A stretch of DNA of 64,000 nt from the sequence record MK373784.1. One strand, given 5' to 3'. The notes beneath the pieces are model-generated. The model had not been told where the DNA came from. It did no database searches and saw only the letters and a program-made list of their open reading frames with translations. A program made the translations under genes and the position numbers. Shown here in pieces: positions 2,026 to 43,977 of the stretch (position 1 is the stretch's first letter; each line of letters starts with the position of its first letter). The stretch comes from Escherichia phage vB_EcoM_MM02.

Positions 2026-2510
2026 ATATACGCTTTCCAAGTTCCTGTTTTAAATGTTGAGATTACGCGTTTCGCGCGATTAGGTGTCTGACGATACCAT
2101 TTAGATTGGGCTAGATTTACTGCCGCTTCATCCCAACGTTTCTGTTGAAGCATACGAAGAGAATTAGTAAAACCGGCGACGCCTGATACACCCATTTGGA
2201 AGACCATATTGACCAATGCACACCGACGAACCGCATCTAAAGAATCATATACCGGTTTAAGTTTAGCATTACCCAAGATTCCGCGAACGGCTTTATCAAC
2301 GTCTTCATTAAATAGCTTTTCAGCCTCATCAAGGGTAATTGTACCGTTGCATTTACGTCCGATCATTCTGTCAAGTTCAGCTTTAGCTACGGCTAAAGAC
2401 GGGGTCTTTGTTACTAAATGGCCTATGCCAATAGTCCAAAAGCCTTCGGTGTCTTTGTATAAAGTCAGTCTAAGACCTTCGTCATTACGAAGCATTTCAA
2501 ATATATTCAT
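2022..2510 (-). CDS. e: lysozyme (endolysin)
   Basis: [15 protein letters not shown]...TGTWKAYI closely matches T4 lysozyme; start set at MNIFEM. Confidence 0.95.
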
Positions 2511-2538
2511 AATACCTCCCACGTTTATAGGAGGTATT
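2511..2538 (-). promoter_or_regulatory. RBS-sequestering hairpin with late-promoter-like loop upstream of e
   Basis: Perfect 9-bp inverted repeat AATACCTCC / GGAGGTATT; SD GGAGG sits in the 3' arm directly before ATG; loop has TATAAAC. Confidence 0.5.
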
Positions 2539-2544
2539 TATTAC

Positions 2545-9430: not shown

Positions 9431-9584
9431 TTATTTCAACGTCACCTTTAGCTGCTTTATAACCTTCAGCCCAAGATACAACAGAGTTTTTATCCGAGGA
9501 TTCAAATTCAGGCATTGGACTTTCACCAATATTCACACAGTATGTTTCTTCATTTTCATCGAACCAAATAATTAAAGTAGTCAT
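9420..9584 (-). CDS. hypothetical small protein
   Basis: Start chosen at MTTLIIWFDE with SD GAGGAG; leader is a 42-bp exact copy of the leader at 45880-45921. Confidence 0.4.
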   Translation of the reverse strand: MTTLIIWFDENEETYCVNIGESPMPEFESSDKNSVVSWAEGYKAAKGDVEIIYI

Positions 9585-9643
9585 TTTGTTTACTCCTCTG
9601 TAGTTGATAAGTCTATAGTACCACCATCCTTGGCGTTTGTACA

Positions 9644-10147
9644 TCATTTATTTTTAATTTTGCAAATTTTTTCTGCTTCAGCAATTGCAGCGTCAATGAT
9701 GCTTTGTGCAATTTTATTACTAGTTGACCTGGCAATCACACTAAGAACAATTTCTTTTTCTTCACCACCCCAACCCCAAGTCCTTTGTTCGTGGGTACCT
9801 TTAACTACAGCTGAAACTTCAACAGAACGTCCACCATCAGAAGTTTTAACATCTACAACCCAATCACCATCTTTCTCTTCTACCCTTGATTTATCCCAAG
9901 AAATACTAATATATGATTCGCCGTCAATAGAAGTCGCCGGGTTTTTCTCTACCGTAAGACCTTCACTTTCCAGCCATTCAATAGTATTTGCGCATAAATC
10001 AGAAGAACACCTCATCGGAAACCGGCAAGATTTTTCACCTTTAGATGCTGCATCGTACATCTTTTCCAAAATACGCTTTTGCACGTTTTTAAAAATAGTT
10101 TCAGCAGATTCTTCAGATTTTTTATTCAGTTCAGTGTAAAGACTCAT
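9644..10147 (-). CDS. hypothetical protein
   Basis: 167 aa ORF; SD GAGGAAAA; promoter upstream at 10176-10204. Confidence 0.5.
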   Translation of the reverse strand: MSLYTELNKKSEESAETIFKNVQKRILEKMYDAASKGEKSCRFPMRCSSDLCANTIEWLESEGLTVEKNPATSIDGESYISISWDKSRVEEKDGDWVVDVKTSDGGRSVEVSAVVKGTHEQRTWGWGGEEKEIVLSVIARSTSNKIAQSIIDAAIAEAEKICKIKNK

Positions 10148-10175
10148 AACATTTTCCTCTATGGTTGATAAGTCT

Positions 10176-10204
10176 ATAGTATCATGTCCTTAGAAGAAGT
10201 AAAC
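10176..10204 (-). promoter_or_regulatory. early-type promoter GTTTAC-N17-TACTAT
   Basis: Minus strand GTTTACTTCTTCTAAGGACATGATACTAT followed by family-1 leader. Confidence 0.45.
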
Positions 10205-10235
10205 ATCTTTATGAAATATTTTTATGCCCTAGATA

Positions 10236-10264
10236 CCAAAAGGCCCCAACCATAAGGAAGGGGC
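10236..10264 (-). terminator. intrinsic terminator
   Basis: Interrupted stem GCCCC..CC / GG..GGGGC followed by T-run on minus strand, just downstream of the 10271-10735 gene. Confidence 0.5.
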
Positions 10265-10270
10265 ATTCTA

Positions 10271-10735
10271 TTATTTAATTTGTTTAGCAGACCAGATACG
10301 GTCTTTAATAAGTTTTTGGATATCTTCAACATACTCAAGGCTATGAGCGTGAGGATTATCTTTGAAGCTATGTGCTCGTGCCAGTTTCTGGCCTTCTGTT
10401 TTGATTACTAAAAGCTCTTTAAGAATTGCTTCATACTTAGAAATAATTCCTTTGGCGATATTTTTTTCTTGAGCTGCTTTAGGGTCTGTTTTTGGCGCAG
10501 GTGCTTTACCTGTAGCTTTCTGGAACAATTCACCTGATGCAGCTAGGCTTTTAAAAACTCGGCTAACAGTATTAGCATTAGTAAAACCTTCGGCTTTAAA
10601 ATCTCTAATAAAACGGAAACGTTCTTCATCAGAGGCGTCTTTGTAAGAATATTTACCTGCTTGAATTGCTGCAATCGCAGCGGCTTTTACATCTGAACTA
10701 GATTGTTCAGTCAAAAATTCAGCGTATGATTTCAT
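10271..10735 (-). CDS. internal protein-like, capsid targeting sequence
   Basis: 154 aa; N-terminus MKSYAEFLTE fits the CTS pattern; SD AGGAAAAG. Confidence 0.55.
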   Translation of the reverse strand: MKSYAEFLTEQSSSDVKAAAIAAIQAGKYSYKDASDEERFRFIRDFKAEGFTNANTVSRVFKSLAASGELFQKATGKAPAPKTDPKAAQEKNIAKGIISKYEAILKELLVIKTEGQKLARAHSFKDNPHAHSLEYVEDIQKLIKDRIWSAKQIK

Positions 10736-10775
10736 GTTGCTTTTCCTAAGTTAATTAACTTATCTATTTATTATG

Positions 10776-10804
10776 CCAAAAAGCCCCGACCTTTCGGAAG
10801 GGGC
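10776..10804 (-). terminator. intrinsic terminator
   Basis: Stem AGCCCC..CC-GAAA-GG..GGGGCT followed by TTTTT on minus strand. Confidence 0.5.
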
Positions 10805-10809
10805 TAAGC

Positions 10810-11116
10810 CTTGCGGCAACCTTGTCGGGGTTCCACCTGCTAAGGCAAGTGTTTGTACGAAACGCCGGGATTCGAACCCGGTTATTAAGCAGTTGACGCT
10901 ACTCAATATTTTTAAAAGGCCATATCTCGACCATATCCGAACGTTCCGTCAAAAACGCTACTCGGCTTACGGCAAAGATATTTCCTCGAATCGATAATTC
11001 GGTGCGCCGTTTCTGCTGTGATGTAAGGGGATATTAACAAATCGTAAAGATTTATTAAGACCAGTCCTTACTCAGGGAACATCAGTCCGACGACTTGCCG
11101 GTAGCGACCCGGCTTC
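10810..11116 (-). ncRNA. non-coding region with tRNA-like T-arm; possible small stable RNA or degenerate tRNA
   Basis: Minus strand contains CCGGGTTCGAATCCCGG (canonical T-arm) but I could not fold a complete cloverleaf by hand; no plausible ORF. Confidence 0.3.
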
Positions 11117-11461
11117 TTATTTTGGCATATCATCAATTTGCTCTCGACGCCGACGCCATAGATTAATCGCTTCATTAACACATTCAGCATTTGGTATATG
11201 ACGACAATAGTATAGTGATTCGCGTTTCTGGAACCGATGTTGTAATGGAATTTCGTTTAAAAGGTCTTTACGGTCAAAGTATTCAAAACTAGTTAACCCT
11301 GAACGGTTTTTAAGAAACTTCCAATGGCCAAATTCATTTTGGAAATAAACGTAATCAGCGTGTTGATATAACGAATTAATCAACCGGTCGGAAATAACTG
11401 TTTCACGTTCGTTAAAATAAAACGTTAAGTCATGAACTACCAGATAAATATTGCCTTTCAT
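11117..11461 (-). CDS. hypothetical protein between tRNA and small-RNA region
   Basis: Start chosen at MKGNIYLVV with SD GAGGAAAA; the longer ORF start would overlap tRNA-Arg. Confidence 0.45.
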   Translation of the reverse strand: MKGNIYLVVHDLTFYFNERETVISDRLINSLYQHADYVYFQNEFGHWKFLKNRSGLTSFEYFDRKDLLNEIPLQHRFQKRESLYYCRHIPNAECVNEAINLWRRRREQIDDMPK

Positions 11462-11479
11462 ATTTTCCTCACTTAAAGT

Positions 11480-11556
<77 letters not shown>

Positions 11557-11559
11557 GAT

Positions 11560-11634
11560 TGGTGACCCTGGCTGGTTTCGATCCAGCTACCTATCAGTTA
11601 TGAGCTGACAGCTCTCCCATTGAGCTACAGGGCC
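11560..11634 (-). tRNA. tRNA with CAT anticodon (Met or Ile-lysidine type)
   Basis: Hand-folded 75-nt cloverleaf: acceptor GGCCCTG/CAGGGTC, anticodon loop CTCATAA, T-arm GCTGG-ATCGAAA-CCAGC, encoded CCA. Confidence 0.65.
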
Positions 11635-11713
11635 TAAATAACTTTCTATTATGAAAGGCACTTTAGAGCACCTTTGGTAATAGAGGGTATGAATTAATAA
11701 TAACACATAATTC

Positions 11714-12229
11714 TTAAAGCAAATCAATCATTTTAACAGTCGGCAAAACGATTTCTTCTTCAATATAAGCAAATTCAACACATTCAACTACACGCAAGAA
11801 ATCATAATCATAATATTCAGAAGCATGGCCAAGAATATCAATGAGACCTTCTGATACTAAATATCCATTCTCATGGAACAGGTCGAATACACGCGATTCG
11901 TCTTCTTCAGATTTATTACCGAGGTCGACTTCAATATCAAAGACCTTTTTAATGAATTCTGGATAAAGCTGGTCTGAGAACAGTCCTTCAACCAAGTATT
12001 CATAGATTAAAAGCGAACAATCACTGAATAGTGTATTACCACAGTAACGTTCAGCTTTAGTGCTGGAATGACGGCTCTTAAATTTCTTTAAGAGATATTT
12101 AAACTGTTGGAGCTCATGCTCTTCTACACCAAATAATGTTTTGGTTTTATAGTTGTCGCCGTCATTTTCCCAAGTAGTGACATCAATTACGTAACCCTTA
12201 GGAATTGTACTGCCTAAACAAATATTCAT
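11714..12229 (-). CDS. hypothetical protein
   Basis: 171 aa ORF. Confidence 0.45.
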   Translation of the reverse strand: MNICLGSTIPKGYVIDVTTWENDGDNYKTKTLFGVEEHELQQFKYLLKKFKSRHSSTKAERYCGNTLFSDCSLLIYEYLVEGLFSDQLYPEFIKKVFDIEVDLGNKSEEDESRVFDLFHENGYLVSEGLIDILGHASEYYDYDFLRVVECVEFAYIEEEIVLPTVKMIDLL

Positions 12230-12233
12230 TTAC

Positions 12234-12524
12234 TCACCGTACCATATTAATGTAATTATATTCAATGCAACGTAATTTCAAAGGATTCTTGAAAATATCA
12301 TATTCAAGAGGGCCTTTTTCTGTTTCAATAAAGAAATCAAAGTTAACTGTGTTAAATTTATCGTCTTCACAGAGTAATTTAACTTGCGAAGATGAACGGT
12401 CGATATAAACCTTTTCAACCTCAAAGTTAGTCAGAATACCGTAGTCATCAACTAGTGCTTTAGCTGCACGTTGATCGCTTTCATATCCATTCTCAATGGA
12501 CGATACTTTAGCATAAAGAATCAT
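12234..12524 (-). CDS. hypothetical protein
   Basis: 96 aa ORF tightly packed with neighbours. Confidence 0.4.
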   Translation of the reverse strand: MILYAKVSSIENGYESDQRAAKALVDDYGILTNFEVEKVYIDRSSSQVKLLCEDDKFNTVNFDFFIETEKGPLEYDIFKNPLKLRCIEYNYINMVR

Positions 12525-12883
12525 GAATGTTCCACCATTTCAAAGGTATGAGCATCAACAATATGATACCAGTCAAAATTTTCTTCTGCGTTTTTATAAA
12601 TTTCGCGAAGAGCCTCAACAGTTTTTCCTGTAGCAACAAGGTCGTCAATACCACCAAGAGGATAACAGTCATAACCAGCAAACAGAAGGAAATTAATAGT
12701 TTCTGTAGGTTCTGGATGCAGTGTACCGTTGTCATCGACTACTTCAAAGAACATATAACCAGGCGATTTAGATTTAATCCAAGCCCATGCTTGAGCTGCT
12801 GAATCAAATGGTCTGCGTATCAAACGACAATCATGGTCTTTAGAAGGATTTGCTTCAAAATCCGCATATACGTGATATTTCAT
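12521..12883 (-). CDS. hypothetical protein
   Basis: Start chosen at MKYHVYADF with SD AAAGGTGAG. Confidence 0.4.
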   Translation of the reverse strand: MKYHVYADFEANPSKDHDCRLIRRPFDSAAQAWAWIKSKSPGYMFFEVVDDNGTLHPEPTETINFLLFAGYDCYPLGGIDDLVATGKTVEALREIYKNAEENFDWYHIVDAHTFEMVEHS

Positions 12884-12884
12884 T

Positions 12885-13091
12885 TTACTCACCTTTTGCA
12901 ATTTTATCCATAACAATAGCGATTAAACCGATTAGAAATGCTACTACCAATGAGATAGAATTTTCAGTTGTTGTCAGTAGTCCGCAAATGAATCCTACAA
13001 ACATCGAAAAACTAAAAGCCATTGAAGCAATTACTACAGCAACATTACGAATCAGTTCAGCGCGTTTCATTTTATTTCTCCATTTACTCAT
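12885..13091 (-). CDS. small membrane protein
   Basis: 68 aa, two hydrophobic segments. Confidence 0.4.
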   Translation of the reverse strand: MSKWRNKMKRAELIRNVAVVIASMAFSFSMFVGFICGLLTTTENSISLVVAFLIGLIAIVMDKIAKGE

Positions 13092-13107
13092 TTGTTTTGA
13101 TAGGACT

Positions 13108-13137
13108 ACTATAACATAGTCCTACCAAGATGTAAAC
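13108..13137 (-). promoter_or_regulatory. early-type promoter GTTTAC-N18-TGtTATAGT
   Basis: Minus strand GTTTACATCTTGGTAGGACTATGTTATAGT; palindrome ATAGGACTA-N8-TAGTCCTAc overlaps the -10. Confidence 0.45.
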
Positions 13138-13140
13138 TAC

Positions 13141-13428
13141 TTACAGAAGAGTTTTTGCAATAATTTTAAGCTGAGCTACAGAAATATGCTTAGCTTTAAA
13201 CAGTGCAGTCTCTTCGGCCGGAGAGATAACAATAGTAGCGCCGTCTTTCTTAGCAGACCATCCATCCCCTAAGTAAACAGTACCTTTTACTTCTTCGCCG
13301 TCAACCAGACTAATCATTGGTTTACCCTCACGTCCTTTATTTGCTTTAATAACTTCGGAAGTAAGGGTTGCTTCGGTCAGAGTAGAAACGTTAGCAACAG
13401 GTGATATAAATTCTTTATAGGTTTTCAT
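13141..13428 (-). CDS. ipI: internal protein I-like, capsid-targeted
   Basis: 95 aa (same length as T4 IPI); N-terminus MKTYKEFISP; sits next to 57B as in T4. Confidence 0.6.
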   Translation of the reverse strand: MKTYKEFISPVANVSTLTEATLTSEVIKANKGREGKPMISLVDGEEVKGTVYLGDGWSAKKDGATIVISPAEETALFKAKHISVAQLKIIAKTLL

Positions 13429-13462
13429 TTTATTTCCTTGAGGTTGTTTATTTGATAGGATG

Positions 13463-13492
13463 ATAGTAACACACCATCATCCTTATGTAAAC
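13463..13492 (-). promoter_or_regulatory. early-type promoter GTTTAC-N18-TACTAT
   Basis: Minus strand GTTTACATAAGGATGATGGTGTGTTACTAT; palindrome AGGATGAT-N11-ATCATCCT overlaps it. Confidence 0.45.
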
Positions 13493-13505
13493 TGTTTTGT
13501 GAAAA

Positions 13506-42065: not shown

Positions 42066-42490
42066 TGTATCTTATCCCTGAATCTTATGAATTGGTACTC
42101 GAAAATGTCGAAGCACTTATTCCTGAAGCACAGGGCCGAATCGATGCATTGTCTTCTGCTCTCGATATTGACGATATAAATACTATTATCGAGAACATGC
42201 TTGAAACTGAAACGGATTTAGCTGTTGCAATGGCTTCCATTATTAATGAAGAACAGTTAAATGAGTTTATCGTTAAACATGTTTCTTCTCGTGGTGAAGT
42301 CACCCGCACTAAAGACCGTAAAACTCGTGAACGTAACGCGTTCCAAACAACTGGTCTTTCTAAAGCAAAACGTAGACAAATCGCTCGTAAGGTCGTTAAA
42401 GCTAAAAAAGCTAACCCTTCAGGCCAAGTTAAAGGCTTGCGTAAGCGTAAAAAAGCTCTTAAACGTCGTAAAGCATTAGGATTAAGCTAA
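42065..42490 (+). CDS. 68: prohead core protein gp68
   Basis: 141 aa; basic C-terminus; synteny. Confidence 0.8.
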
Positions 42491-43131
42491 TGAATAAACC
42501 CGAGTTACTTATTGAAACTTGGGGTCAACCCGGTGAGATTATTGATGGCGTTCCAATGTTGGAATCTCATGATGGAAAAGATTCTGGCTTAAAACCAGGG
42601 CTTTATATAGAAGGTATTTTTCTTCAGGCAGAGGTTGTTAACCGAAATAAACGTTTATATCCTAAACGCGTTTTGGAAAAAGCAGTAAGTGACTATATTA
42701 AAGAACAAGTCGCAACCAAACAAGCCCTTGGAGAATTAAACCATCCACCTCGTGCAAATGTTGACCCTATGCAAGCCGCTATCATTATTGAAGATATGTG
42801 GTGGAAAGGAAACGATGTATATGGACGTGCTAGAATTATTGAAGGCGACCATGGTCCCGGTGATAAATTAGCTGCTAATATACGAGCTGGTTGGATTCCA
42901 GGTGTTTCCTCTCGTGGTCTTGGTTCTTTAACCGACACCAATAAAGGGTACCGTATCGTGAACGAAGGATTTAAATTAACCGTCGGTGTAGATGCCGTAT
43001 GGGGACCTTCTGCTCCAGATGCTTGGGTTACTCCTAAACAAATATCAGAATCAGAAAATTCGGTGGAAATCACCAAAAACAGTGCTGATGAAGCATTTAA
43101 AGCTCTCGCAGAGAGTTTAAAAGCATTATAA
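42490..43131 (+). CDS. 21: prohead core protease
   Basis: 213 aa (T4 gp21 is 212); synteny. Confidence 0.9.
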   Translation: MNKPELLIETWGQPGEIIDGVPMLESHDGKDSGLKPGLYIEGIFLQAEVVNRNKRLYPKRVLEKAVSDYIKEQVATKQALGELNHPPRANVDPMQAAIIIEDMWWKGNDVYGRARIIEGDHGPGDKLAANIRAGWIPGVSSRGLGSLTDTNKGYRIVNEGFKLTVGVDAVWGPSAPDAWVTPKQISESENSVEITKNSADEAFKALAESLKAL

Positions 43132-43164: not shown

Positions 43165-43977
43165 ATGATCAAAGAACAACTTTTGAAAGAAGCTCAGAAC
43201 ATCGAGACTTCAGTTGCTCTTAATAGTGTTTTCGAATCAGTAGAACTGTCTCCGGACGTTAAAGCTAATTTCAGCACTGTATTCGAAGCCACCGTTAAGC
43301 AGGAAGCAGTCAAACTGGCTGAATCTCATATCAAAGCCATCGCCGAAAAAGCCGAAGAAGAAGTTGAAAAGGCTAAAGAAGATGCTGAAGAGAAAGCTGA
43401 TAAAAAATTGGCTGAACAAGCTTCTAAATTCCTAGACCATCTTGCAAAAGAATGGCTCGCAGAAAACCAAATCGCAGTTGATAAAGGCATTAAAGCTGAT
43501 TTGTTCGAATCCATGCTTGGTGGTCTGAAAGAACTGTTTGTTGAACATAACGTTGTTGTTCCAGAAGAATCTGTAGATGTTGTAGCAGAAATGGAAGAAG
43601 AGCTGGCCGAACATAAAGAAGAAACCGCTCGTTTGTTCGAAGAAGTTACCAAACGTGATGCATATATCAATTACGTTCAGCGTGAAACCGCTATTAATGA
43701 AAGCGTAAAAGACCTGACTGAATCTCAGAAAGAAAAAGTTATTGGCCTGGTTGAAGGTATGGATTATTCTGACGCATTTGGTACTAAGTTAACTGCTATT
43801 GTAGAAATGGTTAAAGGTTCTACTAAAGAAGAAGCCGCTATTACCGAAAGTATAAATACAGTTGACAATGACGCTGCCGGTCTTAATTTTATTGCCGAAG
43901 CAGTTGACACTACCACAACTCAGGTAGAACAGAATTCTAATGTAAGTTTATATGCGAAAGTCGCATCTCGTTTCTAA
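43165..43977 (+). CDS. 22: prohead core scaffolding protein
   Basis: 270 aa acidic, helix-rich protein (T4 gp22 is 269). Confidence 0.9.
   Translation: MIKEQLLKEAQNIETSVALNSVFESVELSPDVKANFSTVFEATVKQEAVKLAESHIKAIAEKAEEEVEKAKEDAEEKADKKLAEQASKFLDHLAKEWLAENQIAVDKGIKADLFESMLGGLKELFVEHNVVVPEESVDVVAEMEEELAEHKEETARLFEEVTKRDAYINYVQRETAINESVKDLTESQKEKVIGLVEGMDYSDAFGTKLTAIVEMVKGSTKEEAAITESINTVDNDAAGLNFIAEAVDTTTTQVEQNSNVSLYAKVASRF

Follow-up and report, generated by a model that had tools for sequence, protein, structure and literature searches.

Internal proteins (IPs) are, to our knowledge, the sole T4 proteins that are delivered along with the DNA. This analysis concerns ORF154, an open reading frame (ORF) of Escherichia phage vB_EcoM_MM02, within a 64,000-nucleotide stretch of sequence record MK373784.1 that is referred to throughout as the window and that comes from a Mosigvirus, a T-even phage of the RB69 group; judging from its sequence, ORF154 probably encodes a packaged, gp21-processed internal protein of the T4 type. 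The capsid targeting sequence (CTS) of T4 has been defined by experiment as the first 10 residues of IPIII, MKTYQEFIAE, in which residues 4 (aromatic) and 7 (Phe) act in targeting and residues 8 (L/I) and 10 (Glu) in processing by gp21, the protease that cleaves after L/I-x-E, and in T4 foreign proteins are packaged by these 10 residues alone (PMC9026906). Ip1, Ip2 and Ip3 of T4 were shown in 2025 to be specific inhibitors of different GmrSD-type IV restriction enzymes (PMC12373910). The genes for such proteins are confined to two loci according to Arbiol et al. 2010 (PMC2839356), and the 2025 paper likewise speaks of 'the two Ip loci' (PMC12373910). ORF154 lies outside both of these classical loci (57B-trna.4 and denV-e), between rnaC and the early genes on the e.8 side; the known IPs habitually lie at a classical locus, but their mechanism does not demand it. 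The cassettes of the IP loci, as reportedly set out by Repoila et al. in 1994, undergo modular shuffling by way of repeated promoter and stem-loop flanks.

Leader, late-type promoter and particle association

ORF154 had been read from the letters alone as a gene starting with an internal-protein-type leader, MKSYAEFLTE, flanked by the tRNA region on one side and by the early gene block on the other, and both statements hold: the frame is a 154-aa ORF on the minus strand, and its setting is borne out by the tRNAs, by rnaD and rnaC and by the early-type promoter downstream. With Tyr4, Phe7, Leu8 and Glu10 the leader matches IPIII at all four experimentally critical CTS positions, and its end carries the gp21 motif L/I-x-E as Leu8-Thr9-Glu10/Gln11 (a slash marks the putative cut here and below), the predicted neo-N-terminus after cleavage being Gln11, QSSSDVK.... 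In a six-frame regular-expression scan of the window the leader motif heads four ORFs of at least 40 aa with zero spurious matches, the three besides ORF154 (638-940, 1005-1265 and 1744-2025) all lying in the denV/ip cluster.

The leader is a family trait. ORF154 matches phrog_2280 of PHROGs v4 ('unknown function') with E = 1.4e-53, residues 1-154 on profile positions 1-172 of 178, and full-length matches to the same profile (E 1e-16 to 1e-59) were obtained for the occupants of the corresponding locus in CrRp10 (gp089), LF82-1, JS98 and Mineola; P0053 and P0058, remote relatives from a profile search of a 1.8-billion-protein set, match it too. Each phrog_2280 member examined starts M-x-x-[YF]-x-[EQ]-F-[LV], and most have L/I-x-E at positions 8-10. 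RB68 and CrRp10 have MKSYxQFLNE/AVLNE/A, CrRp10 gp089 and RB69ORF149c have MKTYAEFLTE/A, LF82-1 has MYTFNEFLAE/TEVITE/A, JS98 has MKTYNEFLNE/SVLNE/A and Mineola has MKFKEFLAE/A, while the leaders of P0053 and P0058 are MLKFNEFLAE/G and MISFNEFVDGNLITE/S. The leader is thus kept in relatives less than 35% identical, in many of them with a second L/I-x-E five residues later, and since its codons vary and synonymous sites are near saturation (dS ~1.9), selection acts on the peptide.

The box upstream of the gene points to late expression. Its 29-nt spacing falls in the range of 26-32 nt found for the window's late promoters of gp18, gp20, gp22 and gp24, and a perfect TATAAATA stands directly after the terminator at five homologous loci in four genera (RB68, CrRp10, LF82-1, JS98 and Mineola). 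Early-type promoters are found at the neighbouring genes and none upstream of ORF154; late-only expression within an early/middle region suits the needs of a head component. One-base variants of the late promoter, AATAAATA and CATAAATA, also occur at 2510-2542 (minus), 34364 (plus), 50810 (minus) and 63458 (minus), at normal late spacing before ORFs, so that the variant at ORF154 is not unique in the genome; the AATAAATA form also precedes a 162-aa ORF, probably lysozyme e.

A homologue has been found to co-purify with phage particles. In virions of Yersinia phage fD1 (= phiD1) purified by ultracentrifugation and analysed with liquid chromatography-tandem mass spectrometry (LC-MS/MS), Gp140 was classed as particle-associated (PPAP) at the strict threshold, and the products of the neighbouring g138 and g139 were not marked as such (PMC8309999 Table S3). 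The product of g140 has 157 aa and is 73.6% identical to ORF154; if an RB68-type N-terminus is assumed for fD1 Gp140, its predicted neo-N-terminus is ASSTEIQAVAK. The window itself encodes, besides the protease gp21 and the core protein gp22 (Table 1), gp20 and gp23.

Taken together, these elements suggest the following sequence of events. Transcription of the tRNA-rnaD-rnaC unit would end at the hairpin 10804-10783, whose structure is seen in the folded sequence and which is orthologous to the single hairpin of T4. Late in infection, as the motif, its spacing and the five other phages that conserve it suggest, RNA polymerase carrying gp55 would start at the (A/T)ATAAATA box and stop at the second hairpin, giving a monocistronic mRNA. 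To judge from its match to the IPIII CTS, MKSYAEFLTE would recruit the precursor to the gp22 prohead core, where gp21 would cut after Leu-Thr-Glu10 and leave a basic, all-helical protein of 144 residues and 16 kDa that stays with the DNA; a homologue was found in purified virions. The protein may then enter the host with the DNA and, by analogy with Ip1, Ip2 and Ip3, neutralise a host defence. Gene, promoter and terminator together form a cassette between direct repeats of the terminator hairpin. Inference supports the sequence well as far as packaging, and the role after injection weakly.

Repeated terminators and exchange at the locus

The sequence-only reading had placed ORF154 between two terminator hairpins of a like, interrupted-stem type, and folding, a pattern scan and the annotation of a close relative agree with it. 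The stem-loops occupy 10243-10264 and 10783-10804, with U-runs extending to 10236 and 10776. They are near-identical, GCCCCTTCC-N4-GGNNGGGGC plus U-run, and are the sole two copies in the window; the pattern GCCCCTTCCNNNNGGNNGGGGC picks out exactly these two minus-strand sites, with 0 expected (100 shuffles). In each, a 2x2 internal loop separates five GC pairs from two more, which close a tetraloop, and the folding energies are -17.0 and -16.7 kcal/mol; the corresponding z-scores against shuffles are -1.1 and -1.5, so that hairpin stability by itself is unexceptional. In SA79RD, a 99.3% identical phage, both are annotated as rho-independent terminators. The stem of the T4 and RB68 terminators is continuous, GCCCCGACC and GGTTGGGGC pairing with G-U and A-U pairs included. 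In the window the 5' arm GCCCCTTCC is common to both hairpin copies and produces the 2x2 internal loop. Because LF82-1 and JS98 share the TTCC in their hairpins, the interruption of the stem may belong to the lineage and not have arisen by conversion between the two copies.

Comparison of the locus between phages shows where the gene comes and goes. In T4 and T2 a single hairpin stands ~50 nt after rnaC (AGCCCCGACCGAAAGGTTGGGGCTTTTTGGTATCTAGGCC...), followed directly by the e.8 spacer and an early promoter; the gene is absent, and PST too has one hairpin and an empty post-rnaC site. In the Tequatroviruses RB68 and CrRp10 the order is hairpin copy 1, late box, a 157-aa ORF154 homologue and hairpin copy 2. 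Copy 1 there ends in '...TTTTTGGTAT' and is followed by 'AAATA', by which TATAAATA is created, and copy 2 is followed by 'CTAGGCC...', the same as after the single copy of T4; the junction falls within '...GGGGCTTTTTGGTAT/'. In the window, positions 10773-10855 align to the 83 nt after rnaC of T4, the hairpin part of which aligns also to 10230-10264, and the downstream hairpin matches the post-rnaC hairpin of T4 plus 'TTTTTGGTATCTA'. Megablast homology with phages lacking the gene (T2, RB59) ends at 10773-10778, and homology with ORF-bearing Tequatroviruses begins at 10228. One hairpin against two, together with these breakpoints, defines an indel whose ends are direct repeats of the tRNA-unit terminator. 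By homologous recombination between them the gene would be lost, and it would be gained when the excised circle integrates, which accounts for its absence from T4, T2 and PST and for the presence of 0, 1 or 2 members per site; the same repeat-recombination logic was put forward for the PeSL cassettes and the classical IP loci (PMC2839356).

The locus is therefore polymorphic for presence, with breakpoints at both hairpins, and is neither invariant nor orthologous to a T4 gene, as the sequence-only reading requires. A tblastn search of ORF154 against T4 returned no orthologue, its only matches being N-terminal ones to ipII and ipIII (E = 0.045 and 0.8). The possibility that ORF154 is e.7 or e.8 of T4, or has a remnant in the 285-bp rnaC-e.8 spacer of T4, was set aside for want of a tblastn match there. 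The further claim that the gene is an independently inserted injected-protein cassette stands as far as a repeat-bounded cassette and a candidate IP are concerned; an insertion peculiar to this phage does not, for phrog_2280 occupies the same post-terminator position in at least four genera of Tevenvirinae (Tequatrovirus, Mosigvirus, Dhakavirus and Jiaodavirus). With the same family at the same site in several genera, the cassette is better described as a long-standing resident of the locus that has been exchanged between phages than as a fresh insertion, and T4, T2 and PST look, by parsimony, like deletion derivatives.

Among close relatives the gene is absent in some (T4, T2, PST), broken in others, and replaced within Mosigvirus by differing members: LF82-1, HX01 and their relatives have a 208-aa protein, and RB69 has RB69ORF149c. 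That the 208-aa ORF of LF82-1 and RB69ORF149c are unrelated cassettes was considered and dropped on the basis of weak collinear BLASTP matches and full-length matches to the same PHROG; on their sequences, the two are divergent members of one family. CrRp10 carries tandem genes, each with its own hairpin, gp090 belonging with ORF154 and gp089 being the unbroken version of RB69 ORF149c plus ORF148c, which are the halves of a frameshifted gp089-type gene (extracted RB69 locus 11429-11991). Some Tequatroviruses have two phrog_2280 paralogues in tandem, both provided with a CTS, a late-type box and a hairpin of their own (extracted CrRp10 locus 695-1857). Over residues 1-104 the RB69 copy is 97% identical to Tequatrovirus copies, a value above the usual similarity between T4 and RB69 across their genera, and this suggests recent cross-genus exchange. 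In JS98 (Dhakavirus) and Mineola (Jiaodavirus) a related gene follows the tRNA cluster and terminator and precedes the e.8/e.6 genes. By tblastn the ORF154 type is found in 511 phage records (~70 Mosigvirus at 95% identity or more, ~400 Tequatrovirus at ~73%, and Klebsiella phages with the N domain only), the gp089 type in 165 and the 208-aa type in 144, three counts that overlap; among Mosigviruses there are copies 100% identical to ORF154. In several phage genomes and contigs the family is represented by truncated or frameshifted copies (proteins P0006, P0007 and P0008), consistent with a dispensable gene decaying in some lineages. Two chimeras, P0009 (a Trna.3-like N-terminus with the final 30 ORF154-family residues) and P0056 (the first ~55 family residues with an unrelated C-terminus, phrog_3720/13919), may be recombination products or assembly artefacts.

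The surroundings are those of a T-even phage. APCEc01, O157 typing phage 3 and others share 99.6% identity with it over the 701 bases around ORF154, and in a 99.3%-identical relative the annotated gene order is that of T4, 1-57A-57B-ipI-trna.4/.3/.2-tRNAs, all on the minus strand. A search of 9500-13500 against Rfam returned two tRNAs only, and no family over rnaC, rnaD or the hairpins. Between tRNA-Arg and rnaD lies an ORF of ~114 aa (11117-11461, minus; phrog_3355, unknown function), the longest frame of which overlaps tRNA-Arg, its true start probably being Met17; homologues are present in RB68 and T2, and in T4 rnaD adjoins tRNA-Arg directly, which marks another indel of the tRNA region.

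Table 1. Positions of ORF154, its parts and related features in the window
Feature	Position	Strand	Remarks
ORF154	10271-10735	minus	154 aa, ATG start, N-terminus MKSYAEFLTEQSSS...; candidate head-packaged internal protein precursor
ORF154 codons 1-10, MKSYAEFLTE	10706-10735	minus	predicted CTS/propeptide, putative gp21 site L-T-E/Q
Predicted mature protein, residues 11-154	10274-10705	minus	144 residues, 16.0 kDa, pI 9.6
Shine-Dalgarno-like AGGAAAAG	10740-10747	minus	read from sequence
Late-type promoter AATAAATA	10765-10772	minus	7/8 match to T4 late promoter TATAAATA; ends 29 nt before ATG
Upstream hairpin + U-run	10776-10804	minus	terminator of the tRNA-rnaD-rnaC unit; left boundary of cassette; orthologue of single T4 post-rnaC hairpin
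Downstream hairpin + U-run	10236-10264	minus	ORF154 terminator; direct repeat of upstream hairpin; right boundary of cassette
T4-early-type promoter GTTTAC-N17-TACTAT	10176-10204	minus	promoter of next gene (10147-9644); return to early transcription; read from sequence
rnaC	10856-10994	minus	blastn vs T4 98.6%; with rnaD, directly upstream of cassette
rnaD	11001-11120	minus	blastn vs T4 86.8%
tRNA-Arg(UCU) and tRNA-Met(CAU)	11480-11634	minus	ARAGORN, Rfam
ipI orthologue	13141-13428	minus	classical IP locus by 57B; Pfam IPI_T4 E = 1.3e-50; phrog_4363; mature domain from residue 20
gp21 prohead protease	42490-43131	plus	Pfam Peptidase_S77, E = 2.9e-107; predicted to remove the propeptide
gp22 scaffolding core protein	43165-43977	plus	Pfam T4_CASP, E = 1.4e-89; CTS-bearing proteins are recruited into gp22 assembly

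The mature protein and its possible roles

An AF2 model of ORF154 built on a 6-sequence alignment (mean pLDDT 74) has residues 1-8 disordered, followed by a three-helix N domain (12-66, pLDDT 82-91), a Pro/Lys/Ala linker (67-83) and a long helical hairpin (84-150); as modelled, a disordered leader with a helical, basic remainder is as expected for a propeptide and a protein embedded in DNA. A profile search of the PDB gave nothing (E > 0.7), Foldseek against the PDB gave no match below E = 0.47 (ferritin-like bundles, root-mean-square deviation >20 Å), and BFVD returned only the protein's own family and one weak uncharacterised match from Serratia phage PS2 (E = 0.043), and with no informative structural relatives the fold offers no functional lead. 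Pfam likewise assigned ORF154 to no family, with sub-threshold noise only (GemA, MerR_1 and BKRF4, E ~0.1). Against RB68, dN/dS is 0.07 overall and 0.03 in the C-terminal half, with dN 0.28 in the N domain and dS ~1.9; an overall value of 0.07 with near-saturated synonymous sites marks a real gene.

Several observations count against the proposal of a packaged IP and have to be weighed. The fD1 dataset is unspecific, 113 of 277 gene products being particle-associated, DenV, lysozyme e and NudE among them (PMC8309999), so that it shows expression and co-purification of the homologue and not internal location or N-terminal processing; for this phage, packaging, cleavage and injection of the ORF154 protein are predictions. 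The leader is not strictly invariant, with Gln at position 6 in many Tequatrovirus copies, one residue fewer in Mineola, and Val8 and Gly10 in P0058, and the late promoter of the window departs from the consensus by one base. An internal site, ILKE/L (residues 103-106), is invariant in the close family and lies inside the long helix of the model; it might be cut too, which would make the protein a degraded core component. With an omega of 0.03 in the C-terminal domain and synteny across genera, the family is unlike the hypervariable, lineage-specific classical IPs, and such strong selection and synteny may point to a more general role. Finally, the literature consulted names two IP loci only, which is either a knowledge gap or a reason for caution.

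Among the alternatives, the one that survives best accepts injection and shares the gp21-dependent mechanism, differing in final function only: the protein would have a physical role, bound to DNA and neutralising charge or assisting the DNA end or ejection, rather than acting as a specific anti-defence inhibitor. Its pI of 9.6, the C-domain omega and the spread of the family over Tequatrovirus, Mosigvirus, Dhakavirus and Jiaodavirus fit such a role, yet it is rather doubtful, given that the gene is dispensable in T4, T2 and PST, that the N domain diverges fast (dN 0.28), that some genomes hold tandem paralogues and that the RB69 copy is 97% identical to Tequatrovirus over residues 1-104, traits more typical of host-range or counter-defence genes. 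The next alternative, that ORF154 encodes a late cytoplasmic protein that is not packaged and whose CTS-like start was inherited (e.g. by an old ip recombination) without a targeting function, is unlikely. It draws on the non-structural enzymes in the fD1 proteome, on packaging in this phage being a prediction, and on purifying selection and cross-genus synteny that are unusual among IPs; a functionless leader, however, should have decayed at dS ~1.9, whereas this one, including L/I-x-E and often a second such site, is kept below 35% identity with varying codons, and since the 10 residues of IPIII suffice in T4 (PMC9026906), packaging is expected where gp21 and gp22 are present. Least probable is an accessory of the prohead core or its assembly, comparable to gp67 or gp68, which would be targeted to the scaffold, fragmented by gp21 and largely expelled instead of being injected as an effector: the invariant second [LI]-x-E site, an L-N-E at the matching place in the C-terminal part of P0053 and P0058 (by eye, unaligned), the helical, coiled-coil-like C-terminal half resembling scaffold-type proteins and the cross-genus conservation would suit it, but absence from T4, T2 and PST and breakage in RB69 and several other genomes show that heads can be assembled without the gene, neither the LF82-1/JS98 branch nor that of Mineola conserves the internal site, and the fD1 homologue was detected in mature virions at the strict threshold.

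If ORF154 is a packaged internal protein, counter-defence is the default guess for its function after injection, because Ip1, Ip2 and Ip3 each inhibit a distinct GmrSD-type enzyme; a specific anti-defence function would, on that condition, be a plausible though minority expectation, and cross-genus conservation and basic charge leave room for a general DNA-associated role. A more elaborate possibility, put forward tentatively, is that phrog_2280 represents a third IP locus, built on the tRNA/rnaC terminator and a late promoter and encoding a two-domain injected effector, whose C-terminal hairpin would do a common job (multimerisation or association with DNA or ejection) and whose N domain would confer specificity against a defence other than the GmrSD variants that Ip1-3 inhibit; tandem paralogues and cross-genus exchange would then reflect an ongoing arms race.

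Every copy seen is annotated 'hypothetical protein', and in no annotation found are the CTS, the late promoter or the locus features of phrog_2280 recorded. In the searchable literature, which did not extend to Repoila 1994 and Comeau 2007, there is no mention of phrog_2280 as an internal protein, and the family may be among the 'more than 30 variants' of those two papers. A text search for RB69ORF149c found no paper, IPs are not discussed in Nolan 2006 or Petrov 2010, and the AV110 preprint holds no expression data on the ORF154 gene. One uniformly 'hypothetical' family thus shows a packaging leader, a late promoter and one virion-proteome match at a third locus. If the proposal is true, there are more injected proteins to screen against the defences of wild strains, a CTS gene is known that is naturally controlled late only, and gain and loss of a gene through recombination of duplicated terminators is cleanly exemplified; no concept is overturned, the kind of element being already well known.

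ORF154 beside known internal proteins and cassettes

IPIII and IPII of T4 (MKTYQEFIAE) share with ORF154 the aromatic residue at position 4, Phe at 7, L/I at 8 and Glu at 10, in a window that encodes gp21 and gp22; as with those proteins, the mature product is small and basic, and the gene is not essential and is polymorphic among relatives. ORF154 differs from them in having no sequence similarity past the leader, in lying after the rnaC terminator rather than by denV/e or 57B, in its flanks, where a GC-rich terminator and a late promoter take the place of the early promoter and its overlapping palindrome, and in belonging to a family that is conserved and syntenic across genera. The identification of ORF154 with the 'IpIV' of PST and fD1, which also has 157 aa, was rejected, as only the leader is shared (PST IpIV was read by eye, unaligned). 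The three CTS-bearing ORFs of the denV/e region, all on the minus strand, start with MKTYKEFITE (IPII-like), with MKMYQEFIVE and with a third leader followed by /SILNE; the last two have no Pfam family.

The ipI-like gene of the window had been counted in the sequence-only reading as a further member of the same group; it is a true orthologue of IPI and an internal protein, and it is not of the ORF154 family. IPI and IPI* (PF11634, GmrS/GmrD inhibitor) have, like ORF154, a CTS-type leader and predicted gp21 processing, but a 19-residue propeptide and a compact alpha/beta fold, where two all-helical domains are predicted for ORF154; ORF154 has no Pfam match to PF11634 and, by Foldseek against the PDB, no structural similarity to IPI*. 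The flanks of ipI (13100-13500) hold T4-early-type promoters overlapping palindromes, AGGATGAT/ATCATCCT upstream and TAGGACTA/TAGTCCTA downstream, which is the flank type attributed to classical IP loci and contrasts with the terminator and late-promoter flanks of ORF154.

The cassettes of Repoila and the PeSL cassettes (Arbiol 2010, Comeau 2014) offer the closest parallel for the arrangement as a whole. ORF154 is, like them, a single accessory gene between repeated stem-loops, the ends of its indel fall at the repeats, and a site may hold 0-2 cassettes. In PeSL the composite flank consists of an early sigma-70-like promoter with a stem-loop on both sides; at ORF154 there are stem-loops on both sides and a late box only, the repeat being the intrinsic terminator of the rnaC unit and the promoter joined to it a late TATAAATA box rather than an early sigma-70-like one. 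The ORF154 cassette behaves in a PeSL-like manner, as a repeat-bounded indel, without being PeSL.

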